Assembly: GCA_023131975.1 (NCBI GenBank)
Contig: JAGLYV010000078.1
Coordinates: 3,712-67,711, forward strand
Origin: Candidatus Krumholzibacteriia bacterium
GTDB taxonomy: Bacteria; Krumholzibacteriota; Krumholzibacteriia; Krumholzibacteriales; Krumholzibacteriaceae
Direction of reading: 5' to 3'
DNA length: 64,000 nucleotides
Under the pieces are notes generated by a model. It was not told where the DNA came from and made no database searches. It saw only the letters and a list, made by a program, of their open reading frames with translations. The translations under genes were made by a program, and so were the position numbers. The stretch's first letter is position 1. Every line of letters begins with the position of its first letter. This document shows, piece by piece, positions 17,410-62,824 of the stretch.

Positions 17410-18711
17410 TCAATTCCGGCGGGAAATATTTATCCATGTCCGGCGCAACCATCTGAAAATCGGACCAAGCGCTCCTATCGGAAGGATCGAGAATATCTTT
17501 CGTCCGACTTTTGAAGAACAAAACATGAATTGCATTGAGAACAATATTTCAGCTACTTTTCTGCCTGTTTTGATATCTGGACGTGCCTGATTGAACGACG
17601 GGACCTTATATCCCAGATGCCTCCAGGCGCCGATCCTCAGCCAGGATCCATATTTCTTCAGATCAAAAGCATGTGCATGCATGGACAAAACCTCTTTGTG
17701 GCTGATATCTTCAGCTACGATGATCCCGGCTTCGATCGCTCTCCTTACAAGCTTTTCGCCCTCCCCCGTTCTTGCCAGGACTATCGACCATCCACCCTCT
17801 TCCAACCCCTCCTTCGACCAGGCATCACCGACACTTATATCACTCAACTCATTTGTGAGATCCGTGCAGAACAGGCATCTATGATTTATGTAAAAGGGAA
17901 TAGCCTGATTGAAATCCAGCTTGGAGACCTTCAGAGATTCTTCATCCTTATTGACCACTGAAAAATATCCGGGCCAGTCTCCTTCTCGATACGAAAGCTT
18001 TTTCACATCTTCCAGAGACTTGATCCCCATCTTTTTCAGCATCATCCTGGTCGCTTCATAATACAGGTTGTTTCCGCAATATATACCCACACATGGGCCG
18101 ATAGATGAAGCCTTGTCCCACCCCGAATCCTGCAATTTCCTGATTCCATGAATCTGGCACGGAAGACCGCTTACTGCTATCCTCTCACCGTCTCTGAGAT
18201 CCCCCAGTGCCTCGTTCATGGGACTGAGATGATATTTACTCTGAGATGCTTCTGCCACCTCTGTCTTCGACCGGGCGATCACACCTTTCCCAACGAAGGG
18301 CTTTTCTCTATCCATGGTATAAACAAGCGCCCCATCCGATTTATCTATATCGATAAGAAAGTTCAACAACGCAGTAACGATTCCACCACTGGCTCCAGAG
18401 TCCCTGACCTTTTCGTCGACAGCTCGAGCGACCCACGCGCTTTTTACAATACCGGCAAATGGATCTGTCTCCGAATCGCATATAAATCTTTTTTCGAGTC
18501 TTGAAAAATCAACTTCCGCTCCGGGACAGGAAGCGAGACACAGCCCACATGAATCACACCTCTTTCCCACACTGGGAAGACAGTCACCAAGTCGATCGGG
18601 TATGGATATATTTTCGAGATGACAGACTCCGACACAGGTCCCACACCTTGTACACAATCCGGTATCGACGATTTTACTGATCAACGTTTCACACGGCAGC
18701 TGTGCAGACAT
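17410..18711 (-). CDS. Coenzyme F420 hydrogenase/dehydrogenase beta-subunit-like (FrhB/FdhB family) flavo/Fe-S protein
   Basis: N-terminal 2x[4Fe-4S] ferredoxin motifs (CTRCGTCVGVC ... CDSCGLCLASCP) followed by an FrhB N/C-domain-like body. A second copy lies at 58032..59213. Confidence 0.65.
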   Translation of the reverse strand: MSAQLPCETLISKIVDTGLCTRCGTCVGVCHLENISIPDRLGDCLPSVGKRCDSCGLCLASCPGAEVDFSRLEKRFICDSETDPFAGIVKSAWVARAVDEKVRDSGASGGIVTALLNFLIDIDKSDGALVYTMDREKPFVGKGVIARSKTEVAEASQSKYHLSPMNEALGDLRDGERIAVSGLPCQIHGIRKLQDSGWDKASSIGPCVGIYCGNNLYYEATRMMLKKMGIKSLEDVKKLSYREGDWPGYFSVVNKDEESLKVSKLDFNQAIPFYINHRCLFCTDLTNELSDISVGDAWSKEGLEEGGWSIVLARTGEGEKLVRRAIEAGIIVAEDISHKEVLSMHAHAFDLKKYGSWLRIGAWRHLGYKVPSFNQARPDIKTGRKVAEILFSMQFMFCSSKVGRKIFSILPIGALGPIFRWLRRTWINISRRN

Positions 18712-19426
18712 AAAAGCTCCTCATACCGAGCTGACCCAGAAAAGACTTCCCGACCAGATCGGCGATCACACAATCAAATCGTTCTATCCCGGCTCCCCCG
18801 ATCGGGAGAAAGAGAGTTCCTCTGTAATCATCCAGTCGAAATCCGGAATCTCGAAGCATATCGCGGACTTCACGAGGAGCTAGAAACCTGTGTGGCCCCT
18901 CACCATGATGGAATTTCAATATCCCGTTAAGAACGCTTGTCCATTCGGCAAAAGAAGGAGGCAAGCTCATCACGAGTCGTCCTCCATCGACTACCACCCT
19001 CCGCAGCTCTTTCAGGAACAGTAGTGGATCAGGAACATGCTCCAGCGTCTCCAGCGACATTATTCTGTCAAACGAATCATCGAGGAATGGGAGTTCGTGA
19101 AGTGACGTCTGAACATGAGCCTCTTCCGGATTCAGCCTCCTGCTGCCCCTTAACATCTCCAAAGAGAGTTCCGCGTTTACAAGCTTGATTTCCGGACAAT
19201 CCTTTCTCAGCCAGGGGGTACCGTCTCCGATCCTCGACCAGATATTCAGCAGTCTTGTTCCCGGGGCAAGATCGAGTCTCTTCACAGCCTCCCGGAACCT
19301 TTGTGTATGCACGCGATCAAGTTGTTCGTTCGCGTGTTCATATTCATGCTCGGCTATTCCATCCCAGAATACCCGTACTTCATCCATTGTAAAATCGTTG
19401 GCGTATCTACTACTCATCGTTGACAT
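18689..19426 (-). CDS. Class I SAM-dependent methyltransferase
   Basis: 245 aa with a Rossmann methyltransferase core (LNIWSRIGDG..., DDSFDRIMSLETLEHVPDPLLFL..VVDGGRLVMS). Its 3' end overlaps the FrhB-like gene by 23 nt. Confidence 0.7.
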   Translation of the reverse strand: MSTMSSRYANDFTMDEVRVFWDGIAEHEYEHANEQLDRVHTQRFREAVKRLDLAPGTRLLNIWSRIGDGTPWLRKDCPEIKLVNAELSLEMLRGSRRLNPEEAHVQTSLHELPFLDDSFDRIMSLETLEHVPDPLLFLKELRRVVVDGGRLVMSLPPSFAEWTSVLNGILKFHHGEGPHRFLAPREVRDMLRDSGFRLDDYRGTLFLPIGGAGIERFDCVIADLVGKSFLGQLGMRSFYVCTAAV

Positions 19427-20402
19427 CCTCCGTCTTCTTTTCCAGAGGTGCCACCAGCCAGCATACCAGCCCGGTCACTCCCTGTATCAGATAGACAAGA
19501 ATAAAGGAGAGGGAAAAAGTCACTGCCGCTTCCCTCGAAAGCCCCACCCTGCTGAAGACCATTATAAGAACAAGTTCTCTCGTGCCGAGTCCTGACAGGG
19601 AAACTGGTATAAGTGCGGTAAAAATGGCCGCAGAAACACTTACTATCAAAATATGAAATGACGCGCCCGTTCCGACCCCATCGGCCAGAAGGATAAACAC
19701 TCCGAAATGAAGCACCCATGCTATAGCTGATAACAAGATCACCAGAGCCAGGCCGGAATGCCTGAGAGTGGAAAATTCACCTACAGCCTCCCCTATCCCC
19801 TTGTCTATGTTTCCTCTGAGAGACCCTTCCGAAGCGCCGGAGAGAAATTTCCCGGCAATCCGGCTCAAAAGGTCCCTGCGCCAGAAAAGAACCAGGAAGA
19901 CAACCGCGACGGATACCAGCAGGATACCACTTAAAAGAATCTGGTTATTAAAGATACCGGGGAATGAGACAAGACTGGCGAACCCTATCAGGACAAGAAA
20001 CCCCAGATCAAACAATCTGTCAGCCACTGAGCTGTATACAGCTTTGCCGGCCGACATCCCGCCCCGCATCAGATAGATGCTCTTGATAAAATCACCCAGG
20101 CGACCGGGGGTAAGAAATCCCAGATATAGAGCAGATGAATATATCGCGAACGCGCGCACAAGAGATATTTCTCCGCCCTGCATTTTTACAATGGTTCTCC
20201 ATCTCATGGCTTTGACCAGCGTAAAGGACAGGAGGATCAGAACGGTACCGGACATGTGCAGAAAACTTAAACCGGAAAACGAATCTCTCACAGACCGAAG
20301 GTCCACTCTTGACAGGATCACAACGAACAGGGCTATCCCCGCGATCTGAAATGCCGTTCTCAGGATTTTCTTTTGTGAAAATTCCATCTCAGTAACCCGC
20401 AT
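19410..20402 (-). CDS. Polytopic membrane protein, flippase-like / LPG-synthase-TM-like (UPF0104) family
   Basis: 330 aa with about 8 TM segments and no soluble domain. It has the characteristic pairing with an adjacent GT2 polyprenyl-phosphate glycosyltransferase. Confidence 0.55.
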   Translation of the reverse strand: MRVTEMEFSQKKILRTAFQIAGIALFVVILSRVDLRSVRDSFSGLSFLHMSGTVLILLSFTLVKAMRWRTIVKMQGGEISLVRAFAIYSSALYLGFLTPGRLGDFIKSIYLMRGGMSAGKAVYSSVADRLFDLGFLVLIGFASLVSFPGIFNNQILLSGILLVSVAVVFLVLFWRRDLLSRIAGKFLSGASEGSLRGNIDKGIGEAVGEFSTLRHSGLALVILLSAIAWVLHFGVFILLADGVGTGASFHILIVSVSAAIFTALIPVSLSGLGTRELVLIMVFSRVGLSREAAVTFSLSFILVYLIQGVTGLVCWLVAPLEKKTEDVNDE

Positions 20403-20404: not shown

Positions 20405-21265
20405 TCAGTCAAGCTTTCTCTCTCTTCTCAATGCGGAGATCTGGTCTGCCATTATGCCCATGAAAAACAGAAGTACACTGGTCAGGATGGTCAGAACTCC
20501 GATATTCGGCGCTCGTCCGAACCGCAGAATACCGTAAATCGTAAACAGGATACCGACCCCCATCATCACTATGGATACTGGCACAAAGACCTTAAGCGGA
20601 TTAAAAAGGACGATGACCCTTATGATGAGAAGAAATGTCTTGTAACCATCTTTGAAGAAACTCACATTGCTCGCTCGTCCGACTCTTGCTTCGGCGGGTA
20701 TCGGCAGATACTTCACGCTGTACGCCGATCTCAGATAGGCAAGCGTGATCGTAGTAGTGAAAGAAAAGCCATTCGGGCAAATATGAAGGAACTGGAATAT
20801 CGTCTCTTTCCTGAAAGCCCGGAATCCCGAGTTCAAATCAGGAATATTCATACCACTAAGGTAATTCGCGACCAGCGACAGAACTTTTTTGCCTGGGGCC
20901 CGCATACCTTTCGACTGGCCTCTGGCACCCACGACCATGTCGTACTCGCCGATCTGGCCTATGAGCTTTTCTATATCAGCAGGATCATGCTGTCCGTCAC
21001 TGTCCATCATGACCACGGTATCTCCATTAGCATTCCTGATACCTGTCTTAAGGGATGCCCCATACCCCTTGTTATAAGGATGTCTGCACACTCGCGCTCC
21101 CGATTCGGCTGCTATTTCGGCGGTCCTGTCAGAGGACCCATCGTCTATGACGATCACTTCCCAGTTCTTTTCACCGGCAAGCCTCATCAGGTCATTGAGG
21201 AATTTCGCGAGCCCCGTCTCCTCATTGTATGCGGGAATGATAATTGTCACATCATATCCGTTCAT
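20405..21265 (-). CDS. GT2 polyprenyl-phosphate sugar synthase (DPM1/GtrB/ArnC-like) with two C-terminal TM helices
   Basis: Motifs IIIPAYNEE, VIVIDDGSSDRT, MDSDGQHDP, and C-terminal helices (VLFNPLKVFVPVSIVMMGVGILF, VLTILTSVLLFFMGIMADQI) as in ArnC/GtrB. Confidence 0.8.
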   Translation of the reverse strand: MNGYDVTIIIPAYNEETGLAKFLNDLMRLAGEKNWEVIVIDDGSSDRTAEIAAESGARVCRHPYNKGYGASLKTGIRNANGDTVVMMDSDGQHDPADIEKLIGQIGEYDMVVGARGQSKGMRAPGKKVLSLVANYLSGMNIPDLNSGFRAFRKETIFQFLHICPNGFSFTTTITLAYLRSAYSVKYLPIPAEARVGRASNVSFFKDGYKTFLLIIRVIVLFNPLKVFVPVSIVMMGVGILFTIYGILRFGRAPNIGVLTILTSVLLFFMGIMADQISALRRERKLD

Positions 21266-35562: not shown

Positions 35563-36803
35563 GAACCTCAATACTCGATAAATACGCTGACATAGTCGGG
35601 TGGGACGTGATCGACCAGCTTCATCAGCTTGTGGCTCCCCTCAGGGACATAAAGATAGTACATGTCAACTCCACGCGCAAGGGAGGCGGGGTCGCCGAGA
35701 TCTTGAACAAGCTCGTTCCTCTTAAGAGGGAACTCGGAATGAACGTGTCATGGGAAGTCGTAGAGGGGAACGATGATTTCTTCAAGTGCACCAAAAGTTT
35801 TCATAACGGTCTTCAGGGTGACAAGGTGGAGATCCCCAGATCTCTTCTTGATTCATATGAGCGGGTTAACGAAGAGAACGCCGACAAGCTGAGAGGAAAA
35901 TTGACGGATGCTGATATCGTTGTAATCCATGATCCCCAACCAGCCCCCCTCTTACGTTTCATTCCTGAAAGGAAGGGAAAATGGATATGGCGTTGCCATA
36001 TCGATGCAAGTCATCCCGACAGGTTCGTGTGGAAATACCTTCGCGATTTCATTGTGGAGTACGACGCGAGCATATTCTCTCTTGCGGCGTTTGCACAGCC
36101 TCTTCCCCATACCGAATTCCTGATACCGCCCAGTATTGATCCTCTGAGTGACAAGAACATCGAACTCGACCGAAAAGAGATCGAATCGACCGTCTCGAAC
36201 CTGGGTATAGACACGGAACGTCCGATCATGCTGCAGGTTTCCCGTTTCGACCGTTTCAAGGACCCGGTCGGTGTCATCCAGGCCTACAGGCTTACCAAGA
36301 AATTCGTACCCTCCTTGCAGCTCGTTCTGGCGGGCGGGGAAGCGACCGACGATCCAGAATCACAAGCAGTGCTCGAAGATATCAATATAGCCGCCAACAA
36401 AGATACGGATATTCATATCCTTGTTCTTCCGTCCGACGCGCACAGGACCATAAACGCTCTTCAGAGAGCATCCGATATAGTATTGCAGAAATCCACACGG
36501 GAAGGATTCGGGCTCACCGTGACCGAAGCCATGTGGAAGGGAAAACCTGTCATAGGCGGAGACACCGGCGGTATCAGGATACAGGTAGTAAATCATCGCA
36601 CGGGATTCCTTGTGAACACCCCTGAAGGAGCCGCGCTTCGTGCCCGTTACCTGCTCTTCCACCGAGACAAGCTGATGGAGATGGGATCGACCGCGAAGAA
36701 ATTCGTTAAAGAAAACTTCCTCCTTACAAGGCATCTACGCGAATACCTTACCGTAATGGTCTCCATAATACACGGCGAAAAAGACAGGATCGAGCTTGAT
36801 TAA
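35559..36803 (+). CDS. treT: Trehalose glycosyltransferring synthase (TreT-like GT4; NDP-glucose + glucose -> trehalose)
   Basis: 414 aa, near-colinear with remembered archaeal/Thermotogae TreT (VHVNST..GGGVAEIL..LVPL, WRCHID, PPSIDPLSDKN, QVSRFD, QRASDIVLQKSTREGFGLTVTEAMWKGKPVIG). Confidence 0.7.
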   Translation: MRTSILDKYADIVGWDVIDQLHQLVAPLRDIKIVHVNSTRKGGGVAEILNKLVPLKRELGMNVSWEVVEGNDDFFKCTKSFHNGLQGDKVEIPRSLLDSYERVNEENADKLRGKLTDADIVVIHDPQPAPLLRFIPERKGKWIWRCHIDASHPDRFVWKYLRDFIVEYDASIFSLAAFAQPLPHTEFLIPPSIDPLSDKNIELDRKEIESTVSNLGIDTERPIMLQVSRFDRFKDPVGVIQAYRLTKKFVPSLQLVLAGGEATDDPESQAVLEDINIAANKDTDIHILVLPSDAHRTINALQRASDIVLQKSTREGFGLTVTEAMWKGKPVIGGDTGGIRIQVVNHRTGFLVNTPEGAALRARYLLFHRDKLMEMGSTAKKFVKENFLLTRHLREYLTVMVSIIHGEKDRIELD

Positions 36804-36830
36804 AAGATTTTTACGACACAGGTATCTCTC

Positions 36831-37622
36831 GTGAAGGTGATTAGAGAAGGAGTGGATCTTGAAGCCTTTCTGAGGTCCCTGCGCGCCAGAAAGGAAAGAG
36901 TGCTCCTACTCGACTACGACGGAACACTCGCTCCGTTCAGGGTAAAAAGATCGATGGCCTTTCCATACGAAGGAGTAAGGGATCGTATATCAACTATACT
37001 GAGACTGGAAAGATGCAGGACTGTGATTATCTCGGGCAGGAGCATAAAAGATTTGCCCCCGTTGCTCGGCATTCATCCCCTACCCGAGATATGGGGATGC
37101 CACGGATGGGAAAGGCTTTACCCAGATGGAACCTACGCTGGACCAACACTCGGGAATGAGACTGAAAAAGCGTTCAACCTTATCCGGTCATGGGCCGCAA
37201 GTAAAGATATCGGATCACGGTGCGAATCAAAGCCGGCATCGATTGCCGTACACTGGCGCGGAATCGATGAAAGCAAAGCAGAATCAGAGAGAATATCCCT
37301 CGAGACAGATGTGGTTCCGAATCTGAAAGACGCTGGCATAGCAGTTAGAAGATTTGACGGAGGGCTCGAATTTGTCGCCACTGGAAACGACAAGGGGACT
37401 GCGGTGAAAACAATCCTGCGAGAGAGCGGAGATGACGCAGCCATAGTCTACATGGGCGATGACCTTACCGACGAAAAGGCGTTCGAGGCCCTGAGTAAAA
37501 AAGGGCTCTCCCTCCTTGTAAGACCGGAATTCAGGAAGACCGCCGCCGATGCATGGCTTATCCCTCCAGGTGAGCTCCTCGATTTTCTTGATTACTGGAT
37601 AGAAGGATGTGCACTCACATGA
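36831..37622 (+). CDS. otsB: Trehalose-6-phosphate phosphatase (HAD family)
   Basis: Has the HAD motif I LLLDYDGTLAP, a later GDD motif (YMGDDLTDE), and a probable GTG start. Confidence 0.75.
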   Translation: MKVIREGVDLEAFLRSLRARKERVLLLDYDGTLAPFRVKRSMAFPYEGVRDRISTILRLERCRTVIISGRSIKDLPPLLGIHPLPEIWGCHGWERLYPDGTYAGPTLGNETEKAFNLIRSWAASKDIGSRCESKPASIAVHWRGIDESKAESERISLETDVVPNLKDAGIAVRRFDGGLEFVATGNDKGTAVKTILRESGDDAAIVYMGDDLTDEKAFEALSKKGLSLLVRPEFRKTAADAWLIPPGELLDFLDYWIEGCALT

Positions 37623-39109
37623 ACAGCGAAACTGCGGCTTATAAAAGGCTTGTGATAGTATCCAACCGGCTTCCTTTCGTTCTTGAGAAGTGCGGAGACG
37701 GATGGACTGCGATTCCGGGTTCAGGCGGTCTTGTAACGGCCCTTGCCCCCGTACTCAGAAACCGCGGAGGCATATGGATCGGCTGGCCCGGCATCTCCGA
37801 ATCCGCCGACATATCCGAACTGGTCGAAAAAGCCTCAAAAGATGCGGGGTTTTCGATGACACCCGTAATGCTCAACAAGGATGAGGTTCTGAACTATTAT
37901 GTAGGTTTTTCAAATGAAGTCATCTGGCCGCTCTTTCACGATTTTCAGTCCTACTGCAACTTTGACCCCCGTTACTGGGAAATTTATCAAAAGATAAATT
38001 CGAGGTTTGCTTCTGTAATTGCCGAAAATGCCTCCCCGGAGGATTTTATATGGGTTCATGACTATCACCATATCTGTGTGGCCACCGAACTGAGAAAGCT
38101 GAACGTATCCTCCCGGCTCGGATTCTTTCTGCATATACCATTTCCTCCTCTGGACCTCTTTGTCAAGCTCCCCTGGAGATATGAGCTGCTGCGGGCGATG
38201 CTCGACTACGACCTTATAGGATTCCAAACTCTTCGCGACCGACGGAATTTCACACAGTGTCTTGGGGCCTTTGTAAAAAACATCCGCACGAAGGGGACAG
38301 GACGGCTTCTTTCAGTGGAATTTGAAGGACGGACGAGACTCGTAGGAGCATTCCCTGTCAGCATCGATTACCGGGAATTCTCCCAGATGGCCAGGACACG
38401 CGAAGTGGCTGACAGAGGGTGGTTTATTCATGAAGACATCCCGGACAGAAAGATAGTGCTGGGTGTGGATAGACTTGATTATACCAAGGGCATCATTTAT
38501 CGACTCAAGGCTTTTGCGAGACTGTTGGAAAAACACCCTGAGATACACAGGATGATCACACTAGTACAGGTCGTCGTTCCAAGCAGAAGGAACATTCCCA
38601 TATACGAGAACCTCAAGGTTGAGATCGAAAGACTCGTGGGCGAGATCAACGGGAGGTTCACAAAATCAGGATGGGTGCCTATTCATTATATATTCCGATC
38701 CCTGTCAAGGACCGAACTCCTTGCGTATTACCGATCGTCTGAAATAGCTATAGTCACGCCTCTCAAGGACGGCATGAACCTCGTGGCCAAAGAATATTGT
38801 GCTTCGAGCATCGAACAGACAGGGGCGCTTATACTCAGTGAGTTTGCCGGAAGCGCGCATCAGCTCCAAACCGGGGCTTTTATCGTCAACCCCTATCACA
38901 TCGATGAAGTCGCGGATGCGATATACACGGCCTTCAAAATGAATCAAGAAGAACTCAAGGTTCGAATGAAAAAAATGCAGAAATCCATAACCAGGCAGGA
39001 TATATACTGGTGGGTCGATTCATTCCTGAACGCGGCCATATCAGGAAAACTCAAGGATTTTCCTTTTCTCGAAGAACTCAGCCATGATACCGAACCCAAG
39101 TCGGAGTGA
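37619..39109 (+). CDS. otsA: Alpha,alpha-trehalose-phosphate synthase (UDP/ADP-forming), GT20
   Basis: Starts LVIVSNRLP..., with WIGWPG, VHDYHH and [10 protein letters not shown] motifs typical of OtsA. It overlaps the otsB stop. Confidence 0.85.
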
Positions 39110-42360: not shown

Positions 42361-45009
42361 TTACGAGCCGGGACGGATGAGTACTCTTGTAATTTCATAT
42401 CCATTAGCACTGTCCCTGTTTCGCAGGTAGTCGTGGATCTTTCTGTTGGGCAGATACGAGGCTTCCTTCACTGATATTCTGAAAGTATATACTCCGGGAG
42501 ACATCCCCTCGGGGACATGTATCCGGAATTCCTGCCTGACAGGAGAATCACTCCACTGATCAGGAAATGCCCTTCCCCCCATTAATCTTTCGGATCTTGT
42601 CGTCCTGAAAAACATTCCCTGACGTCTTTCGATAATTCTTCTATATTGCTTGTCATACCATTCCCTGTAGAATGCCCCTTTTGGAAAATCGGTATCCAGC
42701 CGCACCGTCCATTCAAGGGGAAGACCGAAATCAACTCCGTGTACAGCCCTCCAGCAGAAAGAACCTTTCAGTGTGTCTCCAGACACGATCTCTCTCGAAT
42801 CCATCCATATACTTTCAAGCCGGATCCCGGTGTCCGGAAACTCTTTTCCGGAAAGAATACGCAAGCTGGAATCGTATGGAATATCTTCGTCGAGGAATGC
42901 TTCCACATCTTCCCCGCATTCAGACGGTCCGGTCACAGAAGTAATAAGTCCATCTGATATCAGATCCCCCGGGCAATCCACATCGACCGAAAAGAGGAGG
43001 AACCTGCCGTTTCGAGATATCTCGTTCAAAACAGGTCCAGCAGATCGGAATTTCAACAGAATATCGTTTGTCGCATCGACTGGCACGGTGCTGAAAAAAT
43101 CACAGGACACTTCTCGCTCCGTATCCACAACCAGATAACCGACTCCCTCTGTTTTCAGCCACTCCAGGCTTTCCCACATGGGTACTACCGGGCTGAAAAG
43201 ATCCCGGGTATTCTCGATCCTTTCTACCGCATGGGGGTCAGATGGGGAACCGTGTTGCCCCAGGATGACAGTCACAAAATGGTCCGTCACAGCTGAAATC
43301 AGATAACTTGTTTCCGGATCCGAACTGATAACGGAGTTCGAAGGCAGCTCTGAAAGAAGACCCTCTATGTCCGAGATCGCTTCTCCTTCATCAGCCTCCG
43401 GCTGACCGGCGAGACTTCCTGTGACCTTATAAGCATCGATAGCAGCGGTCCTCAAAGGTAACGCGATCAAAGCGATCAGGATGATAGCCAGGGTCCTCAC
43501 CAGCAATCTGTTCCACCACGCCACCTGCCCCGCAGTTTTATTGATTCTTCCACTGACCAGGAGACGTAACGAGCCGACAGTCAAAACGGATAGTACACAT
43601 GCCATCGGAGCAGCATCCAGCAGCCTGTAGTACAGGTATCCACTGAGGGATATCAGGAAAGTCGATGTCAGGGGGTTGAAAACGAGGAGTGCTGGCAGAA
43701 GGAACATAAGTCCCGCAAGAAATCCATATTCCCTTATTCTACCTGATATGAAAATGAACGGTGAGAGAAGAGCAATGAAAAAGAAAGAAAGCCCGGAATA
43801 CGACAACACTTCAGCGGGATCCACAACAGAGAGTGTCCTGCCTATCATCAAAAGACCCTGCGCGTGAGTATGTATTTCGTTAAAATCTCTCCCTGAGATC
43901 AATAGTCGAATGATCAGGGGCAGAACAATCGCCACAAGTATGATCGGAAACGCAAATCCAAGTCGCACCCTCCACTTCGCTCCTCTTCCCGGAAACATAC
44001 TGTACAGGAAAAACGAAACCATTGTGATTCCGAGCAACAGGGGAAAGACAATATGGACCGCGACTCCAGCCAGTGACAGGATCGCTGCATAGACAAGGTT
44101 CCATTTCCCACTGCCTTTGATATACCGGATTATGTATCCAGCCGTAAGCCAGTATAGCGCCATCATCATGTTTTTGCTGTAACCGGCTTTGGTCAGCCAC
44201 ACCAGGCCTTCTCCATGTATGAGGAGAATAAGGAAGACAGATGCAAGGATCGTGAGGGCCAGTGACCTCAGGATCTCTCTCGCAAACACCCAGAAGGCTA
44301 ACAGATAGAAGAAAGCAAGAAATGAGGGAAGCATGCGCCAGAGGATCAGGGGAGAAGTATCAGCCATGAATACCCATAGTGCCACAACAGGATGCCATGC
44401 GCCTTTCCGTGGATCAAAAAGGCCCCCGTCACCACCTTTAAAAAATGAATCAGCAGGAAAGAGGCGACCTGTCTCGATACTTCTGCCTATATAGCTCAAA
44501 TGATCGGGGGCATCTGTCGCGATTCCCGTCTCACCACTCCCGAAATAGAATACAAAGAGGAGAAGAAACATCGCAGAGCCAAAAAACAGGAGTGCTTTTC
44601 GTTCGCGTGGAGCCAACTCATCGCCTGTTCCAAGAATCCCTACGAGGTCCCCTCTTTCGCAGGGATAGGGATACCCGCATCTTACAAAGACAAGTACGGC
44701 CATCCCGGCTGTAGCAACAACCCCCATGACAGCGATTACAGGATAATCCAGTCCAGGAATCAAACCGAGGCTCACAAGCAGGATCGAGTAGATCAGCCCC
44801 GAAGAAAAGACCCGTGATAACCCTTCCACGGTCACGGTCAATTTCCCGAAAAATAGATAGTTGATGTATATCCCCGGCAAGACAAAGATAGACAGAAATG
44901 CCAGTGCGACCCCGACTATCTCCAGCCCCGGAATGACTCTGAAAGCGGTCAGAAGGGAAAGACCCAGTATCGATATAGAAATAACAAGTGCAGTCGTTCT
45001 CTTGTTCAT
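42361..45009 (-). CDS. Large GT-C-fold membrane glycosyltransferase candidate (YfhO/ArnT-like: about 14 TM helices plus a roughly 280-aa C-terminal extracytoplasmic domain)
   Basis: 882 aa with long hydrophobic stretches through about residue 600, then a soluble tail. Located downstream of an ArnE-like 4-TM protein and a soluble GT2 polyprenyl-P sugar synthase. This is the same gene logic as csbB-gtcA-yfhO and arnC-arnE/F-arnT. Confidence 0.4.
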   Translation of the reverse strand: MNKRTTALVISISILGLSLLTAFRVIPGLEIVGVALAFLSIFVLPGIYINYLFFGKLTVTVEGLSRVFSSGLIYSILLVSLGLIPGLDYPVIAVMGVVATAGMAVLVFVRCGYPYPCERGDLVGILGTGDELAPRERKALLFFGSAMFLLLFVFYFGSGETGIATDAPDHLSYIGRSIETGRLFPADSFFKGGDGGLFDPRKGAWHPVVALWVFMADTSPLILWRMLPSFLAFFYLLAFWVFAREILRSLALTILASVFLILLIHGEGLVWLTKAGYSKNMMMALYWLTAGYIIRYIKGSGKWNLVYAAILSLAGVAVHIVFPLLLGITMVSFFLYSMFPGRGAKWRVRLGFAFPIILVAIVLPLIIRLLISGRDFNEIHTHAQGLLMIGRTLSVVDPAEVLSYSGLSFFFIALLSPFIFISGRIREYGFLAGLMFLLPALLVFNPLTSTFLISLSGYLYYRLLDAAPMACVLSVLTVGSLRLLVSGRINKTAGQVAWWNRLLVRTLAIILIALIALPLRTAAIDAYKVTGSLAGQPEADEGEAISDIEGLLSELPSNSVISSDPETSYLISAVTDHFVTVILGQHGSPSDPHAVERIENTRDLFSPVVPMWESLEWLKTEGVGYLVVDTEREVSCDFFSTVPVDATNDILLKFRSAGPVLNEISRNGRFLLFSVDVDCPGDLISDGLITSVTGPSECGEDVEAFLDEDIPYDSSLRILSGKEFPDTGIRLESIWMDSREIVSGDTLKGSFCWRAVHGVDFGLPLEWTVRLDTDFPKGAFYREWYDKQYRRIIERRQGMFFRTTRSERLMGGRAFPDQWSDSPVRQEFRIHVPEGMSPGVYTFRISVKEASYLPNRKIHDYLRNRDSANGYEITRVLIRPGS

Positions 45010-56285: not shown

Positions 56286-58007
56286 ATGGTATTGCCTCTT
56301 TCGCCCTCGCTGGTAAGAAATGTCATATATCCCGTGTACAGGGGGTTTAGGGGAGACAGGCTTTTATCGACCCTCAATGAGTTGGAGAAGAACCAGTGGC
56401 TCTCGCTCCCCGAGATCGAGGATATCCAGTGGCGACGAATGAGTTCTTTCCTCAAAGAGATAACAGCCCACGTCCCCTATTACATGGATATTTTCAATGA
56501 ACTGGGGTTGAAGCCCGGGGACATTCAGAATCCGAACGATTTCATGCAATTACCTCTACTGGATAAATACGTAATCCGCCAGGAAGGCAAGCGGATGGTG
56601 ACCAACGATCCCGTGAAAAAGGGATACAAGGCGAGTACGGGAGGATCGACAGGAGAACCGCTCTATTTTTCCAATGACCTTTCCGCAGCTCCTATTCGGA
56701 GAGCGAATACCGCGAGAGGACACAGAATGGCCGGAATCGACATCGGTGATAAGCAGGCCTTTGTCTGGGGCTTTCCATTCGACATTCCACTCAAGGAGCG
56801 GATGGCAAGCACGGTCAGGAACTATTTTGCCAATATCACCTACCTTTCATCTTTCAATCTTTCAGAAAAAGCGATGGCGGATTACGCGGCGAAGCTAAAG
56901 AGGTACAAGCCGGCCCTTGTGATCGGATACCCTTCGGCCGTAACCTTCTTTGCCGAATTCCTCCGTATGAGGAATATTACCGGAATCCGGCCAAAAGCGG
57001 TCATCTCAAGTGGGGAAAAAATGTTCCCGCAGCAGAGAGAAACGCTCGAAGAAGTCTTCGGGTGCAGGGTCTTCGACCGCTATGGCAGTAATGAAGTCGG
57101 GAATGTCGCTCATGAATGCGATCAGCATAAGGGCCTTCATATATTCTCGGATCTTATCTACCTCGAGATACTCAGAGAAAACGGCCGTCCAGCCGAACCG
57201 GGCGAAGTAGGAGAACTTGTTATTACTGACCTGCTCAACCATTACATGCCGTTCGTCAGGTACAGGACCGGCGACATGGCAATCCTCAGCAGCAGGACAT
57301 GCGCATGCGGCAGGGGTCTACCGCTTCTCGAGCGGATAGAGGGCAGAACCTTCGACAATATAATGACTCCCGACGGACGGTCGATTGGCGGATACTTCTG
57401 GACTTATCTCTCAAGAGTGGTTCCAGGAATAAAGCAGTTCCAGGTCGAGCAAAAGCAACGAAGCTCCCTGGTCTTTAGAATTGTCCCGGGACCGGACTGG
57501 AACGACTCGTACAAGGAACGACTCATCAGCGAGATTAGCGAGAACATGGGCGAATCGGTCAAGGTAAAGATCGACAGGGTCGATGAGATTCCGCTCACTC
57601 CGGCGGGTAAGTTCAAATTCATCATCTCGAAGGTCGAGGAAAGACTCGTAGTTAAGTCAAAGATCCACAAGGCTGTCGTGACCAGAGTTGATCCGAACCA
57701 CATCGACTGCGTGATCATAGACGAGGATGTTCTCGAGATGAGCAACATAGCTCCCTGCGAAAGGGTCCTTATTGTCGACAACACCAATGGCGCAAGAGTC
57801 GAAACATTTGTCCTGAAAGGGAAAAAGGGAAGCGGAGAGCTGATATCCTGTGGAGCGGTAAGCAAACAGATCCACGATGGGGACGAGATAATTCTCATGG
57901 CTTTTACCTGGTCGGAAGAGACGCACGACCAGTTCACCAATATTCTTGTCGACGAAAAGAACAGATTCGTCCGTTACCTGACAGAAAAGGCGGGCGACAA
58001 GATCTAG
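56286..58007 (+). CDS. CapK/PaaK-like adenylate-forming enzyme fused to a C-terminal PanD-like (aspartate-1-decarboxylase fold) domain
   Basis: Residues 1 to about 450 are PaaK-like (STGGSTGEPL P-loop, etc.). Residues about 457 to 573 align across the full PanD length (KxH, TNGAR, GSGxLIxCGA, GDEIIL.AF). See the matching finding for the substituted catalytic residues. Confidence 0.6.
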   Translation: MVLPLSPSLVRNVIYPVYRGFRGDRLLSTLNELEKNQWLSLPEIEDIQWRRMSSFLKEITAHVPYYMDIFNELGLKPGDIQNPNDFMQLPLLDKYVIRQEGKRMVTNDPVKKGYKASTGGSTGEPLYFSNDLSAAPIRRANTARGHRMAGIDIGDKQAFVWGFPFDIPLKERMASTVRNYFANITYLSSFNLSEKAMADYAAKLKRYKPALVIGYPSAVTFFAEFLRMRNITGIRPKAVISSGEKMFPQQRETLEEVFGCRVFDRYGSNEVGNVAHECDQHKGLHIFSDLIYLEILRENGRPAEPGEVGELVITDLLNHYMPFVRYRTGDMAILSSRTCACGRGLPLLERIEGRTFDNIMTPDGRSIGGYFWTYLSRVVPGIKQFQVEQKQRSSLVFRIVPGPDWNDSYKERLISEISENMGESVKVKIDRVDEIPLTPAGKFKFIISKVEERLVVKSKIHKAVVTRVDPNHIDCVIIDEDVLEMSNIAPCERVLIVDNTNGARVETFVLKGKKGSGELISCGAVSKQIHDGDEIILMAFTWSEETHDQFTNILVDEKNRFVRYLTEKAGDKI

Positions 58008-58031: not shown

Positions 58032-59213
58032 TCACCAGGGCCTTATGGGTATCTTCGCCAGGATTTTCAGTATCAGTCGAGGAGGAGTCCACAGGTTCAA
58101 AATCTTTTCAAGACAGATCCTGCCCATGTCGTCCATCCGCATCTTAAGATGAGCCAATAAGGTACCTGATTCACACCCGGCACGTATTCGGGTATTTTTG
58201 TTCTTTCTACGCAATCCCGGCCAGTCCACCGACTGTTTTACATCCTCAATGGTGACTGGACGCGATTCGAGGCTGCTGCTGGAAAGGGTCAGAAGTTCCC
58301 TCCCCCTTTCACTGTGTACAATCACGAGAGAAAGACCTCCACCCACTTCACCGGAACGGACTATATTCCACGGATCAGCCACAGTGATATCCGCGCCCGC
58401 CCCCATGGGATTCGGGCAGAGCCTGCAAGCAGGCAGCGTCCAGAGACCTTTCCCGAAGGGAAGAGCCGCAGCATCGGCCCACTCAATCGTACGGTCCTCT
58501 ATCTCGATCTTGCCCGGCCACCCTTTCCCGCGGTACGACACCTTGCCCTCACCCTCACGGTCCAGTCCCATTCGTCCGCGCATAAAGCGCGTAAACCCCT
58601 CGTTTTTTTGCTGCTTGCAAAAAACTCCGATCATGATGAGATCATCGCGTTTTCCCCCGTAGAAATTGTCCAGAGCGATAAGTTGGCAATTAGTGCCCAC
58701 GACAATCAACTTCCCTTCGCGGGGCCGGGAAAACTCGAGGTTCTCCAGTACCGGGACCGGTCGATAGGTCGAGTTTGCAAAGTCTTCCACTCGAAACCCC
58801 CGGGAAACATATCCACCCTTCACCCATGGGAAAAAAGTATCGTCGACAAGGCAGTAAGCCTCATCAACGATACCGGTATTGAGGGCAGATTCGATAAGGG
58901 TACGGATCACTCCACCCGATGATGAGTTACGTCGCCGGTCCGGATCGGTCGAGTGGCTGAGCCATGAGGAAGCGATCGAAGTCCATGACATTTCCTTCCA
59001 GGGATTAGCTGACAGGAGAGGAACGGGACATATCCTGACGCAGAGACCACAGGATATACAGCTCGCTTCATCCCAGATTATCCTGAATCGGCCATCTTCG
59101 ATCCAGTCGCGCGAAAGAGCTCCCGATGCACATCCTGCGAGGCACGCGCCACACTGGCAACAGCGATCGACTTCGAAATGGATCTTATCATCCTTACCGT
59201 ACGAGATCATCAA
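58032..59213 (-). CDS. FrhB/FdhB-like Fe-S flavoprotein (pyruvyl-transferase-associated type)
   Basis: 2x[4Fe-4S] motifs (CCQCGACLAGC; CISCGLCVRICP) followed by an FrhB-like body. Overlaps the upstream pyruvyl transferase by 20 nt. Confidence 0.65.
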   Translation of the reverse strand: MMISYGKDDKIHFEVDRCCQCGACLAGCASGALSRDWIEDGRFRIIWDEASCISCGLCVRICPVPLLSANPWKEMSWTSIASSWLSHSTDPDRRRNSSSGGVIRTLIESALNTGIVDEAYCLVDDTFFPWVKGGYVSRGFRVEDFANSTYRPVPVLENLEFSRPREGKLIVVGTNCQLIALDNFYGGKRDDLIMIGVFCKQQKNEGFTRFMRGRMGLDREGEGKVSYRGKGWPGKIEIEDRTIEWADAAALPFGKGLWTLPACRLCPNPMGAGADITVADPWNIVRSGEVGGGLSLVIVHSERGRELLTLSSSSLESRPVTIEDVKQSVDWPGLRRKNKNTRIRAGCESGTLLAHLKMRMDDMGRICLEKILNLWTPPRLILKILAKIPIRPW

Positions 59214-60477
59214 GACGCTCCATAGACTGACGGACGTGGCTCTTTTTTTCTTCTATTACATTCGACAGGTGGTCTTTCCATCGTTGTCTTTCAAGCCACA
59301 TCCTGTCGAAAGCTCCCAGTGTCCACTCCGCGGTGAACTCCTCGATGTCGACCGAGAACTCCTCGAGCCCCAGTGACCTCATGTATTCGCGCACCTTAAA
59401 AAGGTAATTGACAGATATAGTCGGCACACAGGCGCCCGTTGAAAGGATGCAAGCGTGCATCCTGGTGGTGATGTTAAGGTCGGAGCAGGCTAGCATCCCT
59501 TTCAAAGCTGCTGGTGTAGGGAGCTGCTCTATGACCAGCACTTCCTTAGCAAGCTTCATCCTGCTGCGGATCTCCAGAGAGGTAGCCAAATCGTCCTCCC
59601 TGCAGCCATGGACCGGGTAGTTGGTCGGATAGAGGACAATTCTGACTCCGTATTCCGATATTAACGAATCGGCCAGCAAGGCCATCTCATCCAGATAGGA
59701 CTCGTAGTTGCTGAATTCGGTCTCGATCCTGTTCCGGAAATAACTCCAGCGCATCGCCGAGATTCCGACAATACTGTCGTTTTCATCCGCTCCGATAATC
59801 TGCAGTGCTTCTTCCCGCGGGATCCATTCCTGAAGAACAGCCATGTCGATAGTCTCGACAAGATTGGTGGCATCATCCCCTGTAAGTACGCGGGTCGCTT
59901 TCGTCGACTCTTCATCTCTCGTGTATATAAGGTCGACACTTTTCAGGACAGGCCTGGCAAGCCGCTTCGACCATCCAAAAATGAATGGACCGATCGTCGA
60001 CGGAAATATCACCATCTTTTTCCCCAGTTTCCGTACAAGGGAGAGAGTGTACAAGGAGAATACCACGTTTTTGAAGAACTTGTCGTTTATACGCTCAGCA
60101 CCAACACTTATCACCAGGTCAGCATCTATGAATGCAGCAAGTTTTCTGGCGAAGGGAACCTTTCCCCTGTCGATAGAGGATTGCGGGAGCACCGATACCG
60201 CCGTCATACAGACAGTCATCCAGAAGGATGTCTTTAAAAGCCAAAAAATCTGCTTGAGCCGAGCTTGAAGGAAGGGATATTCGAAGATGTCTTTTATTGT
60301 CTCGATTCCATAAAGGTCATGAAAAACTTTCGGAACATGAGCCATGACCTTTATCGTGCTTCCTGGAAAGCGTTCTCTCAGCAGCTTTATTGCGTTCTCC
60401 ACAAGCGCGCAGGAACCGACATTCGCGTCAGTGTATGCCTCGATAATCAAAATATTCAAAATCTCTTTATTATTCAT
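59194..60477 (-). CDS. Polysaccharide pyruvyl transferase (CsaB/WcaK family)
   Basis: 427 aa. The N-terminus NILIIEAYTDANVGSCALVENAIKLL is typical of PS_pyruv_trans. It is classically paired with an FrhB-like gene. Confidence 0.65.
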   Translation of the reverse strand: MNNKEILNILIIEAYTDANVGSCALVENAIKLLRERFPGSTIKVMAHVPKVFHDLYGIETIKDIFEYPFLQARLKQIFWLLKTSFWMTVCMTAVSVLPQSSIDRGKVPFARKLAAFIDADLVISVGAERINDKFFKNVVFSLYTLSLVRKLGKKMVIFPSTIGPFIFGWSKRLARPVLKSVDLIYTRDEESTKATRVLTGDDATNLVETIDMAVLQEWIPREEALQIIGADENDSIVGISAMRWSYFRNRIETEFSNYESYLDEMALLADSLISEYGVRIVLYPTNYPVHGCREDDLATSLEIRSRMKLAKEVLVIEQLPTPAALKGMLACSDLNITTRMHACILSTGACVPTISVNYLFKVREYMRSLGLEEFSVDIEEFTAEWTLGAFDRMWLERQRWKDHLSNVIEEKKSHVRQSMERLDDLVR

Positions 60478-60489: not shown

Positions 60490-61602
60490 TCACCTGTCCA
60501 TTTTCCCTGCCAAATGTGGTATTTGTTCAAACAGGTCTTCGTAAAGGGGGACGATTGATTCGATCCCAAAACGTTGCTGCGCTTTTTTTGCAATACTGCC
60601 TCTGTCAAACATGAAGTCCCCTGCCTTTTCGATGCTGACAGTCAATGCCTCAATGTCGCCGGAAGGAACAATGTGACCATTCTCGCCTTCCTCGATGAGT
60701 TCGTCGATGCCTCCAGGACATGCAAAGGCGATCACGGGACATCCCAGGGACAACGCTTCAACGAGGACATTGGGAAACCCCTCATATCTGGAACTAAGAA
60801 CGAAGGCAGCGGCGTGGCGAACAAACGGATAGGGGTTCGATACAAAGCCGTGAAATATTATTCTATCGTCAATTCGAAGTTCTCGCGACCGCGCCTCGAG
60901 CGAGCCTTTTAGTCCGCCTTCACCGAGAATATGCAGGTAGATTTCAGGGTCGCGTACCTTTGCCATCGCATCCAGGAGCATGTCGAACCCTTTTTGCGGA
61001 TGGAGGCGTCCCATAGCCACGATGTTTACCTTACCGATAGAGAAGCTTTCAGGACAGTCTCCGGCAGCTTGATCAATGATCCTGCCGGTGTCGGCAGGAT
61101 TGTTTATCGTGACTATCCTTTCCAGAGGAACATGGTATGTTCTGTGGACGTCACCTCTCATGTCATTTGACTGGCAGATGATCCGGTCCAGATACCGATA
61201 AGAAAGCCTATACATCCATGGGGCGTTCCAGAAACTTTTGGCAGTCGAGATCCTCATCGAAGGGATACCGCTTTCTCTGCCATAATAGACAGGATCTGCT
61301 TTCCTTACCATGAGGCGGGAAAATCCGAGTACCATATTCATGTAACATATAGTCCCTATGACAACATCCGGACGCACAGTGTCAATCAGCCCTGGCAGAC
61401 GAAAAAATGCGCCGGCCAGACTGGTCCGCATATCGTAAAGTTCTATATCTTCGGAAAGATCCCGGAGGAATACTCCTTTTTTTCTTAATAGAGCCAGATG
61501 GATCGAGAACCGCCGCCGATCTATGTTGTTCATAATGTGAACAAATACTCTCTCGGCTCCTCCTCCTTCCAATGTCGGGATACAGAAAAGAACTTTTTTC
61601 AT
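60490..61602 (-). CDS. GT4 family glycosyltransferase
   Basis: MKKVLFCIPTLEGGGAERV..., with a C-domain EALSLGCPVIAF. Start at the internal ATG. Confidence 0.8.
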   Translation of the reverse strand: MKKVLFCIPTLEGGGAERVFVHIMNNIDRRRFSIHLALLRKKGVFLRDLSEDIELYDMRTSLAGAFFRLPGLIDTVRPDVVIGTICYMNMVLGFSRLMVRKADPVYYGRESGIPSMRISTAKSFWNAPWMYRLSYRYLDRIICQSNDMRGDVHRTYHVPLERIVTINNPADTGRIIDQAAGDCPESFSIGKVNIVAMGRLHPQKGFDMLLDAMAKVRDPEIYLHILGEGGLKGSLEARSRELRIDDRIIFHGFVSNPYPFVRHAAAFVLSSRYEGFPNVLVEALSLGCPVIAFACPGGIDELIEEGENGHIVPSGDIEALTVSIEKAGDFMFDRGSIAKKAQQRFGIESIVPLYEDLFEQIPHLAGKMDR

Positions 61603-61606
61603 CGTA

Positions 61607-62824
61607 TCAGATCTCACCCCACCCACTTGGCGAAAGGAGGCTAAGAATGACATATTTTAACTTGTATGCCCTCAACTTCCATAATGCCGTTGTTTCTCCG
61701 TTGAAAAGTCTCAATATGTTGAGGAAAAATCCAGGATCGGTCCTGTGGATCAGACGGCCCTTCCAATGCCATGGTGCTCCACACCCCGTCCTGTTAATCT
61801 CTTTCGGGTCCTCACCGTAAAGATTTTTCCTTCCTTCGGCCTGGAAAAGAGAAGTCGTGGCGAGGTATCCCAGCTCCCCGGCCAGGTCGAAAAGTCCCTG
61901 GTTCATCCCGCCTCCAGGCCAGCATAGGTAATCGACCCGCCTCCCGAGTGATTCCTCGAGTATCCTTTTTGAATCTGCCAGTTCGGATCTGACTCGCGCG
62001 GCGAATTCCGCATCCGTCTCGTAGCTGTCCGCCGCACGCGGGCTTTTACCGGCGATCGTCGACAGCTGCTCGCGCCAGTCGTTTCTATTGAAAAAATCGG
62101 CACTGCCGTTTTCGCTTACGTAATCGGCGAGCTTTGAATCTAGACTCTGGTCCTGGAAATATTTTTTCGTGACAAGTGATTTTCCATGTTCATAGACCGG
62201 GGTTCCGTAAGGGATTCTGTCTTCCAGCCGCGCGCTCATGTATTCGTGTTTCCTGTCGGGCATCCTGTTCCACGAGAGCCATGGAGGAGGATTGTAACCA
62301 TCGACTCCGGAAGGCCTGTGAAAATCGATTATCCGGGGGCCGTTGAAATACCATGTATGTGTCGCCGCGTGGCTCTGGATTTCGATCGCCCCGTCCTCCT
62401 CCATCTTTCTCATTTCGCATATGGAGAGAAAACCGCGGTTCTCAAGTTCCTCCACCGACAGGTCTCCGTTCCACACGTCATCGAGGGTAGGGCGCGGAAT
62501 CGGAGAAGGGTCGATGAAATCGGTCGTCATCCAGACAACCGCTTTGTGCCCGTATTTCCTGATGAGAGGAAAGGCGTATGTCCAGTTGTTCAGGTAACCA
62601 TCATCGAATGTCAATATGAAGGGGTTTTCCGGAAGGGAAACATTATCCTTCATGTGGGCATGCAACATATTGAGGGTAATCGCGTTCCAACCACGGTCCC
62701 TGAGTATCCTCATCTGACCCTCGAAAACATCGTGCCGCACGAAGAGGTGCGGCCATAGCCATCCTGGAACGGCGGGACCGACCCCATGATACATAACAAC
62801 AGGTATACCTTTAATTCTCATCAC
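61607..62824 (-). CDS. Polysaccharide deacetylase (CE4/NodB homology) family protein
   Basis: Has the LTFDDGY motif (FILTFDDGYLNNW) plus downstream His motifs. About 405 aa, like the EPS-locus deacetylase subfamily. Confidence 0.7.
   Translation of the reverse strand: MMRIKGIPVVMYHGVGPAVPGWLWPHLFVRHDVFEGQMRILRDRGWNAITLNMLHAHMKDNVSLPENPFILTFDDGYLNNWTYAFPLIRKYGHKAVVWMTTDFIDPSPIPRPTLDDVWNGDLSVEELENRGFLSICEMRKMEEDGAIEIQSHAATHTWYFNGPRIIDFHRPSGVDGYNPPPWLSWNRMPDRKHEYMSARLEDRIPYGTPVYEHGKSLVTKKYFQDQSLDSKLADYVSENGSADFFNRNDWREQLSTIAGKSPRAADSYETDAEFAARVRSELADSKRILEESLGRRVDYLCWPGGGMNQGLFDLAGELGYLATTSLFQAEGRKNLYGEDPKEINRTGCGAPWHWKGRLIHRTDPGFFLNILRLFNGETTALWKLRAYKLKYVILSLLSPSGWGEI

Follow-up and report, generated by a model that had tools for sequence, protein, structure and literature searches.

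Many capsules, O-antigens, N-glycans and cyanobacterial exopolysaccharides (EPS) carry O-lactyl (1-carboxyethyl) groups, which change charge and antigenicity, and in the accessible literature we found no accepted biosynthetic route to these ethers outside peptidoglycan. The precedent within peptidoglycan synthesis is MurB, which reduces an enolpyruvyl ether; a further case is dehydro-F420-0, whose enolpyruvyl group is reduced by the nitroreductase-fold domain of FbiB. The FrhB family also includes reductases of organic molecules: BciB is an 8-vinyl reductase, and HCAR acts on an organic substrate in a ferredoxin-dependent manner, without coenzyme F420. We describe here two FrhB-like proteins, FrhB1 and FrhB2, encoded on a 64-kb stretch of DNA (the window; contig JAGLYV010000078.1 of assembly GCA_023131975.1, positions 3,712 to 67,711) from a Candidatus Krumholzibacteriia bacterium. 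FrhB1 is encoded with a polysaccharide pyruvyl transferase (pair 1) and FrhB2 with a class I S-adenosylmethionine (SAM)-dependent methyltransferase (MT; pair 2), and each represents a widespread, uncharacterised enzyme pair. We give roughly even odds to the reading that FrhB1 and FrhB2 each supply the reductase activity in a unit of two enzymes by which a glycan receives a substituent. Pair 1, which lies in an EPS locus with Wzx, Wzz and Wza components, most probably decorates surface sugars with lactic-acid ethers, judging from the comparative analysis below.

Open reading frames (ORFs) across the window were scanned with Pfam and NCBIfam profiles, and both ORF pairs were found where the initial annotation had placed them. 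The PF04422 and PF04432 profiles that it had suggested running match both FrhB-like proteins. The Pfam gathering cut-offs, 22 bits for PF04422 and 23.3 bits for PF04432, are exceeded by both proteins: FrhB1 matches PF04432 at 1.2e-15 (58.1 bits) and PF04422 at 1.6e-7 (31.8 bits), and FrhB2 matches them at 5e-39 (134 bits) and 5.9e-17 (62 bits), respectively. The pairwise alignment of the paralogues that the initial annotation had suggested gives 25% identity, and the domain architecture is the same in both: an N-terminal 2x[4Fe-4S] ferredoxin domain is followed by the flavin/[4Fe-4S] core, and the C-terminal tail is basic and helical. AlphaFold models of FrhB1 and FrhB2 (predicted local distance difference test scores of 87 and 91) match FrhB-family structures only, at probability 1.0, namely 8riu_B, 8rja_E, Fsr, FrhB, FdhB and Arabidopsis HCAR; the best match of FrhB2 is 8riu_B. 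A scan for conserved residues was made on narrower alignment sets, two broad alignments being too diverse. Both clades defined below keep, without exception, all eight cysteines of the N-terminal dicluster domain, C175, C198, C262 and C265 of the core (predicted [4Fe-4S] ligands), S98-G99-G100 of the SGG loop and R227/W231/P232/G233 of the YRxxxWPG motif (the predicted flavin loop), S147/Y149 and two aspartates. Thus, all cysteines for three predicted [4Fe-4S] clusters and the putative flavin-loop motifs are kept in both proteins. No transmembrane (TM) segment is present in either FrhB1 or FrhB2. The C-termini are lysine/arginine-rich helical tails with a net charge of approximately +9 to +14, basic and amphipathic in the case of FrhB2, and would fit peripheral membrane association.

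Membership of this family raises the prospect that the two proteins are F420- or ferredoxin-linked subunits of energy metabolism, of the hydrogenase, formate dehydrogenase or Fpo type, with an adjacency to transferase genes that is incidental. FrhB2 does score 143 bits on an FrhB subfamily model, and the best solved relatives are F420-reducing modules. Nevertheless, the curated NCBIfam cut-offs for FrhB, FpoF and FdhB are not reached by either protein: FrhB2 scores 143 bits against a cut-off of 269 (PRK09325) and 112 against 331 (TIGR03289), and FrhB1 scores 23.5 bits against 269 (PRK09325). Hydrogenase, formate dehydrogenase and F420 genes are absent from the Pfam matches of the ORFs scanned across the window, and FrhA/G, FdhA and Fpo partner subunits are absent from the genes listed for the related loci that were looked up. 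In addition, the transferase adjacency and fusions are conserved across phyla, and the FrhB-like/pyruvyl transferase pair occurs in Klebsiella, Lactiplantibacillus and Sinorhizobium, which to our knowledge are not F420 producers. On the strength of the missing partner genes, the scores below cut-off and the conserved transferase partners, we reject this explanation as barely credible. The initial annotation had allowed that FrhB2 might prove closer to hydrogenase or formate dehydrogenase subunits with genomic partners elsewhere; its partners are local.

An exhaustive search of 1.84 billion representatives returned 8,462 relatives at E<=1e-3. Relatives of FrhB1 at 44%, 29% and 24% identity all adjoin a pyruvyl transferase, in three different gene arrangements, and every one of the 13 long proteins (624-869 aa) among the best 150 relatives is a fusion of an FrhB-like domain to PS_pyruv_trans, with the FrhB part first in 11 and the transferase first in two. 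A scan of GTDB species genomes gave 412 relatives, and neighbours were scored in the 80 loci kept; here and below, neighbour counts rest on custom-built hidden Markov models (HMMs) and stop-to-stop ORFs. A pyruvyl transferase lies within 6 kb of the FrhB-like gene in 71 of these 80 species loci, is immediately adjacent in 63 and is fused to it in two. The claim that this pair recurs is thereby borne out, with fusions in both orders. We refer to this clade as PvT-type. Its hosts include Bathyarchaeia, Methanosarcinales, Dehalococcoidia and Planctomycetota, and annotated examples from cultured bacteria occur on S. meliloti pSymB, on an L. plantarum EPS plasmid and in Parabacteroides distasonis. 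The small, mobilizable K. aerogenes plasmid p35_D (13.5 kb) carries a cassette of flippase, FrhB-like protein, pyruvyl transferase and two glycosyltransferases (GTs), which has the appearance of a mobile enterobacterial module for glycan modification. In an Aegiribacteria metagenome-assembled genome (MAG), the PvT-FrhB pair is directly adjoined (L005, 7246-10664) by two GT4 genes flanking a radical SAM/SPASM gene; the same gene order is found in the window at 25037-28350 on the minus strand, with the radical SAM/SPASM gene at 26194-27192.

FrhB2 belongs to a different arrangement. It is the last gene of a four-gene operon with the order GT2 / LPG_synthase_TM / MT / FrhB2, where a 2-nt gap is followed by overlaps of 17 nt and 23 nt. 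The initial annotation called it an orphan in a GT2/flippase-like module 38 kb from pair 1; the module is real, the distance is closer to 39 kb, and a tight operon with its own clade and partners is hardly the setting of an orphan. The start of FrhB2 is an ATG at 18711, 5 nt past an AGGAG, the TGA stop of MT ends at 18689, and homologues align along 100% of the 433 residues of FrhB2. Because of this AGGAG-preceded ATG and the end-to-end alignment of homologues, we regard the 23-nt overlap as genuine; a wrong start codon, the artefact that the initial annotation had warned of, is ruled out as its source.

Seven contexts of FrhB2 relatives at 35-57% identity contain a nearby GT2 in every case, an MT in five and an LPG_synthase_TM gene in four, and three proteins (P0089, P0090 and P0106) are MT-FrhB fusions. 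A metagenome scan yielded 49 loci of this MT-type clade, many of them on short contigs. MT is present in 38 of the 49, adjacent in 33 and fused in six, and LPG_synthase_TM is found in 24. Among the 21 informative loci, those with at least 2.5 kb of upstream sequence, 20 contain a GT2, so that the most constant neighbour of FrhB2-type genes is GT2 and not MT. In four loci (L111 at 4669-8235, L115 at 5086-8472, L116 and L136), the custom HMMs identify a triple fusion of MT, 2x[4Fe-4S], FrhB_N/C and LPG_synthase_TM in one ORF of approximately 1,100 aa, always adjoining a GT2; Pfam confirms the two that were checked, L111 and L115. These single polypeptides equal three of the four operon genes in the window. 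The GT2/MT-FrhB/LPG_synthase_TM module was found in Krumholzibacteriota, Planctomycetota and Acidobacteriota. Several modules of this type have unannotated polytopic membrane proteins with 6-10 TM-like segments next to them, downstream in L002 (12056-13516) and L010 (7303-9201) and upstream on the opposite strand in L003 (3909-6110), which came up as candidate GT-C-type transferases. These proteins (486-733 aa) have no BLAST similarity to one another and no relative in the window, and a single weak DUF6020 match was obtained.

To separate the clades, HMMs were built from partner-defined sets. FrhB1 scores 128 bits on the PvT-type model and 94 on the MT-type model, FrhB2 scores 563 on the MT-type model and 317 on the PvT-type model, and held-out cases were also sorted correctly. 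A pyruvyl transferase is absent from all 49 MT-type loci, and a methyltransferase is adjacent in two of the 80 PvT-type loci. Each paralogue therefore falls in a separate, widely distributed clade that is tied to a particular, obligatory transferase, both clades include natural fusions, and both pairings far exceed chance. The suggestion that FrhB-like proteins are not specific to pyruvylation is upheld by the existence of the MT-coupled clade, and the coupling of FrhB2 to a methyltransferase through the 23-nt overlap is matched by conserved adjacency and by MT-FrhB and triple fusions. The further proposal of a general accessory of substituent-adding enzymes holds in that the partners are indeed different enzymes of this kind; it fails in that there are two specialised clades whose partners are mutually exclusive.

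For pair 1, ketal formation is redox-neutral and characterised pyruvyl transferases work alone, yet the reductase is strictly conserved, which argues for a product other than a ketal. We propose that the transferase would move the C3 unit of phosphoenolpyruvate (PEP) onto one sugar hydroxyl of a lipid-linked repeat unit, giving an enolpyruvyl ether. A ferredoxin-type donor would then pass electrons to FrhB1 by way of the N-terminal 2x[4Fe-4S] domain, and FrhB1 would reduce the C=CH2 bond. The product would be an O-(1-carboxyethyl) (lactyl) ether instead of a pyruvate ketal, following MurA/MurB-like logic with unrelated enzymes. Ferredoxin or flavodoxin is the most likely electron source for the dicluster, since many hosts are not known F420 makers.

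Comparative evidence from the literature, drawn from Klebsiella types K22, K37 and K66 and from Campylobacter, suggests such an O-(1-carboxyethyl) product. According to Pan et al. 2015, types K8, K22, K37 and K66 carry pyruvyl transferase genes and their capsules are not pyruvylated; a 'nitroreductase' (HG127), found only in K22 and K37, is listed beside the transferase wclZ, and a 'coenzyme F420 hydrogenase' (HG203), found only in K66, beside wcqF. Among 79 K types, O-lactyl sugars are confined to K22 and K37 (beta-GlcpA-Olac) and K66 (beta-Glcp-Olac), and K8 is listed with pyruvylated galactose (Patro & Rathinavelan 2019, Table 1); the title of a cited work gives the K22 residue as 4-O-[(S)-1-carboxyethyl]-GlcA. 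When the two tables are compared, all three O-lactyl types, and those alone, combine a pyruvyl transferase with a flavoreductase. Also, a mass of 234 in the literature corresponds, by our own arithmetic, to a hexose of 162 plus 72, which fits a lactyl group and not a ketal (+70). The role of the redox protein in ketal-pyruvate transfer, which the initial annotation took as the question to be explained, is thus probably a false premise, as the Klebsiella data point to O-lactyl ethers.

Under a more conventional explanation, FrhB1 would be an accessory of ordinary pyruvylation, serving as a scaffold, as a redox sensor or in acceptor preparation, and the reaction would yield a 1-carboxyethylidene ketal as usual. 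Its partner does belong to PF04230, a family in which all biochemically characterised members make ketals (review PMC6801904). We nonetheless consider this unlikely: the strict conservation of three predicted Fe-S clusters and flavin motifs in both clades argues for catalysis, adjacency of approximately 80-90% with repeated fusions suggests an obligate chemical step, and ketal-pyruvylated Klebsiella types manage without a reductase, the reductase genes in the list of Pan et al. appearing only at K22/K37 and K66, the sole O-lactyl capsules. An oxidative role, in which the FrhB-like enzymes would dehydrogenate a sugar hydroxyl or a lipid-linked intermediate to create a keto or ene sugar as acceptor for the transferase, appears less plausible still, and we judge it very unlikely. 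FrhB-family enzymes are reversible two-electron flavin catalysts, and DprE1/DprE2 provide a precedent for redox tailoring of a polyprenyl-phosphate sugar. Such a role would leave unexplained why lactyl (reduced) sugars, and not ketals, accompany the Klebsiella reductase genes, and an input domain of the low-potential 2x[4Fe-4S] kind is more typically found in enzymes that work reductively.

Several points weigh against the formation of lactyl ethers by pair 1. The link between genotype and structure consists of three Klebsiella types, with an FrhB-like reductase in K66 alone, where it is known by annotation, and columns of the Patro & Rathinavelan table were assigned by counting tabs by eye. 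A blastn search with the K. aerogenes pair, aimed at the E. coli and Shigella O-antigen clusters for lactyl sugars, gave no DNA match, and the top 120 results of the homologue search include no named Shigella or E. coli match. Furthermore, there is no report of lactyl sugars from many of the hosts (Bathyarchaeia, Dehalococcoidia, S. meliloti). The accessible open literature assigns no function to the combination of FrhB-like protein and pyruvyl transferase, the gene being listed only in Pan et al. 2015, although a lactyl product may already have been proposed in print where other enzymes are concerned.

For pair 2, the proposed steps and chemistry are put forward with much less confidence than those of pair 1. 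The GT2 of the operon has a catalytic GT2 domain followed by C-terminal TM helices, and it resembles the polyprenyl-phosphate sugar synthases AglJ, PpgS, ArnC and GtrB. Its best NCBIfam matches are AglJ (1e-38) and PpgS (1.7e-24), all below the equivalog cut-offs (133 bits against 325 for AglJ, 86 against 370 for PpgS and 68 against 529 for ArnC). We suggest that this GT2 would synthesise a polyprenyl-phosphate sugar on the cytoplasmic side of the membrane, that a membrane-held MT-FrhB2 unit would tailor the lipid-linked substrate and that the flippase-like protein would move the tailored sugar across the membrane. That tailoring probably occurs at the membrane and on a lipid-linked sugar is suggested by the fusion of MT-FrhB to the LPG_synthase_TM membrane domain. 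The favoured chemistry would be a SAM-dependent alkylation giving an exomethylene intermediate, followed by its reduction to a methyl branch, in which case both FrhB-like clades would reduce a terminal C=CH2. MT has only borderline or weak similarity to olefin-methylating families, with 26.3 bits on CMAS (cut-off 27) and 7.6e-4 to a 24-sterol C-methyltransferase structure. Two observations count against this chemistry. MT is a generic class I enzyme without specific kinship to olefin-methylating enzymes, and its matches to solved structures, generic class I methyltransferases only, give no clue to the substrate. Some MT-type FrhB loci (L008 and L009) lack MT, so the FrhB2-type reductase may act where MT does not. 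L009 has a DUF362 protein (8345-9421) between the FrhB-like gene and LPG_synthase_TM, which may be an alternative partner.

A serious alternative for FrhB2, and perhaps for FrhB1, is reduction of the lipid carrier, such as saturation of one isoprene unit in polyprenyl phosphate, which would provide the AglJ-like GT2 with a carrier resembling dolichol, with MT acting independently on the sugar. GT2 is commoner than MT beside MT-type FrhB genes (20 of 21 informative loci, L008 and L009 having GT2 without MT), dolichyl phosphate is the carrier used by archaeal AglJ, to which the GT2 is similar, and the basic amphipathic tails and the membrane-domain fusion would place the enzyme at the membrane. 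On the other hand, repeated MT-FrhB fusions suggest sequential action on the same site or molecule, and we know of no polyprenol reductase in the FrhB family. On balance we think carrier reduction improbable.

More speculatively, the FrhB-like proteins of glycan loci could make up a large family, so far unrecognised, of 'substituent ene-reductases', with GT2/MT-FrhB/LPG_synthase_TM constituting an undescribed pathway for the synthesis, reductive methylation and flipping of a polyprenyl-phosphate sugar donor. By saturating a terminal C=CH2 they would complete the alkylation of a lipid-linked sugar, with lactyl ethers resulting where a PEP-dependent transferase had acted and C-methyl groups where a SAM-dependent methyltransferase had. 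The sugar donor would serve envelope modification, and in some organisms the whole tailoring and flipping unit would be one triple-fusion polypeptide. We hold this broader view only tentatively and consider it unlikely.

The features of the two gene pairs are collected in Table 1. FrhB1 was listed as an ORF at 58032-59213 with a TTG start at 59213; its true start is probably the ATG at 59210, because the identical Krumholzibacteriota protein P0121 begins there and a GGAG lies 7 nt upstream. With this start, the pyruvyl transferase and FrhB1 genes overlap by 17 nt, an arrangement indicating that they are translationally coupled. The transferase match to PF04230 is full-length (112 bits, profile positions 1-278 of 280), and its scores on the NCBIfam equivalogs CsaB (70 bits, cut-off 213) and WcaK (50 bits, cut-off 399) are both below cut-off.

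Table 1. Genes of the two FrhB-like pairs and their immediate neighbours, in window coordinates.
Feature	Coordinates	Strand	Length (aa)	Evidence and placement
FrhB1, PvT-type FrhB-family oxidoreductase	58032..59210	-	392	Pfam; identical to P0121 (Krumholzibacteriota MAG)
Polysaccharide pyruvyl (enolpyruvyl) transferase	59194..60477	-		PF04230 PS_pyruv_trans 5.2e-32; upstream of FrhB1
GT4 glycosyltransferase	60490..61653	-		Pfam; directly upstream of pyruvyl transferase, 12-nt gap, same direction
Polysaccharide deacetylase-family protein	61607..62824	-		PF01522 3.5e-16; further upstream, same strand
FrhB2, MT/GT2-type FrhB-family oxidoreductase	17410..18711	-	433	Pfam; last gene of four-gene operon
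Class I SAM-dependent methyltransferase (MT)	18689..19426	-		Methyltransf_11 2.6e-15
LPG_synthase_TM ('flippase-like') polytopic membrane protein	19410..20402	-		PF03706 1.8e-38; TIGR00374; 8 TM-like segments
GT2, polyprenyl-phosphate sugar synthase type	20405..21265	-		PF00535 2.3e-34; TM-like segments 209-270; first operon gene

The first part of the window (0.5-17 kb) is occupied by housekeeping genes, namely those for XseA, FolD, RNase Y, PheST, IF3, ThrRS, DnaK and CCA enzyme, and the FrhB2 operon lies between the last of these downstream and a tRNA-Leu gene upstream. The latter belongs to a tRNA-Leu(taa), tRNA-Cys and tRNA-Gly cluster (21359-21720, minus strand) directly upstream of the operon and itself preceded by a near-consensus sigma-70-like promoter (21776-21747), and the GT2 operon may be co-transcribed with, or lie just downstream of, this tRNA operon. 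Polysaccharide genes fill the region from 25 to 64 kb, among them a Wzx flippase, a Wzz-like protein, a tyrosine-kinase-type ATPase, a Wza-like exporter, two Bac_transf initiating transferases and many GT4 genes. Convergent with FrhB1, within the EPS locus, is a gene (56286-58007, plus strand) for a 573-aa fusion of an AMP-dependent ligase (DVU_1553/PaaK-like, 7.6e-46) to a PanD-like aspartate decarboxylase domain (PF02261, 2.8e-25, residues 454-561), which might equip the polymer with a substituent derived from an amino acid. An 882-aa protein in the middle of the locus (42361-45009, minus strand) has approximately 13 TM-like segments and no Pfam or NCBIfam match, and could be a polymerase or a GT-C-type enzyme. 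Between two polysaccharide regions lies a plus-strand cluster (34882-39109) encoding a DUF5752 protein, a TreT-like GT, a trehalose phosphatase and a GT20 trehalose-phosphate synthase. Finally, a 160-aa ORF (32491-32973, plus strand) matches both dTDP_sugar_isom (3.3e-18) and Polysacc_synt_C (1e-14) over the same residues, a double assignment that may come from overlapping reading frames or from a spurious match.

If the proposal for pair 1 is true, lactyl as opposed to ketal decoration would become predictable from sequence, by the presence of an FrhB-like protein or a nitroreductase alongside the pyruvyl transferase. Prediction of structure from serotype would improve, as for Klebsiella K66, and hundreds of loci annotated as 'coenzyme F420 hydrogenase' would need re-annotation. 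The GT2 / methyltransferase-FrhB / MprF-type module is a widespread operon that now has strong fusion evidence and a testable hypothesis.

Among described systems, MurA/MurB comes closest to the chemistry proposed for pair 1: a PEP-derived enolpyruvyl ether is formed on a sugar hydroxyl and then undergoes flavin-dependent two-electron reduction to a D-lactyl ether. As in that system, pair 1 combines a PEP-dependent C3 transferase with a predicted flavin reductase, encoded as an obligate unit (63/80 adjacent, 13 fusions). The protein families are unrelated, however, the transferase of pair 1 belonging to PF04230 and not to the MurA/EPSP-synthase fold, and the reductase to the FrhB family with three predicted Fe-S clusters, in place of MurB, which is an NADPH/FAD enzyme; a lipid-linked repeat unit, and not a nucleotide sugar, is the likely substrate. 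The Klebsiella genes wcqF and HG203 of K66, and wclZ and HG127 of K22/K37, resemble pair 1 in that a type-specific pyruvyl transferase lies beside a flavoreductase in a Wzx/Wzy capsule locus, and the corresponding capsules have O-lactyl sugars and no ketal. In K22/K37 the reductase comes from a different family, and window pair 1 is a diverged sub-branch relative to the Klebsiella pairs, whose genes were listed without functional assignment (Pan et al. 2015).

The F420 modules FrhB, FdhB, FpoF and Fsr-N share PF04422, PF04432, the core cysteines and the flavin loop with the window proteins, their best solved representatives being 8riu_B, 8rja_E, 7np8 and 9r51_B. Window-type proteins differ from them in extra basic C-terminal helices, dedicated transferase partners and hosts that are not known F420 makers. 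HCAR and BciB, F420-independent reductases of organic substrates within the FrhB family, share fold and cofactor set with the window proteins, HCAR being a significant structural match and BciB a reductase of a vinyl C=C bond. They differ in having tetrapyrrole substrates, no transferase partner and 16-18% identity to the window proteins.

Pair 2 resembles the ArnC/ArnD/ArnEF/ArnT, GtrA/GtrB/GtrX and AglJ-AglP systems, in which a GT2 with C-terminal TM helices, a membrane protein and tailoring enzymes are likewise found together; AglP, for instance, methylates a lipid-linked glycan. The flippase-like protein of pair 2 is an LPG_synthase_TM (MprF-type) protein instead of GtrA or ArnEF, its operon, unlike those polyprenyl-phosphate sugar modification systems, has no GT-C transferase, and an FrhB-type reductase fused or coupled to a methyltransferase is undescribed in the Arn, Gtr and Agl systems. 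A model for MT plus FrhB2 is offered by BfaB/BfaA, which make 10-methyl fatty acid (tuberculostearate), and by ERG6/ERG4 of sterol synthesis. These belong to different enzyme families and the likeness is one of analogy only, but in both a SAM methyltransferase makes an exomethylene group that a partner reductase then saturates.

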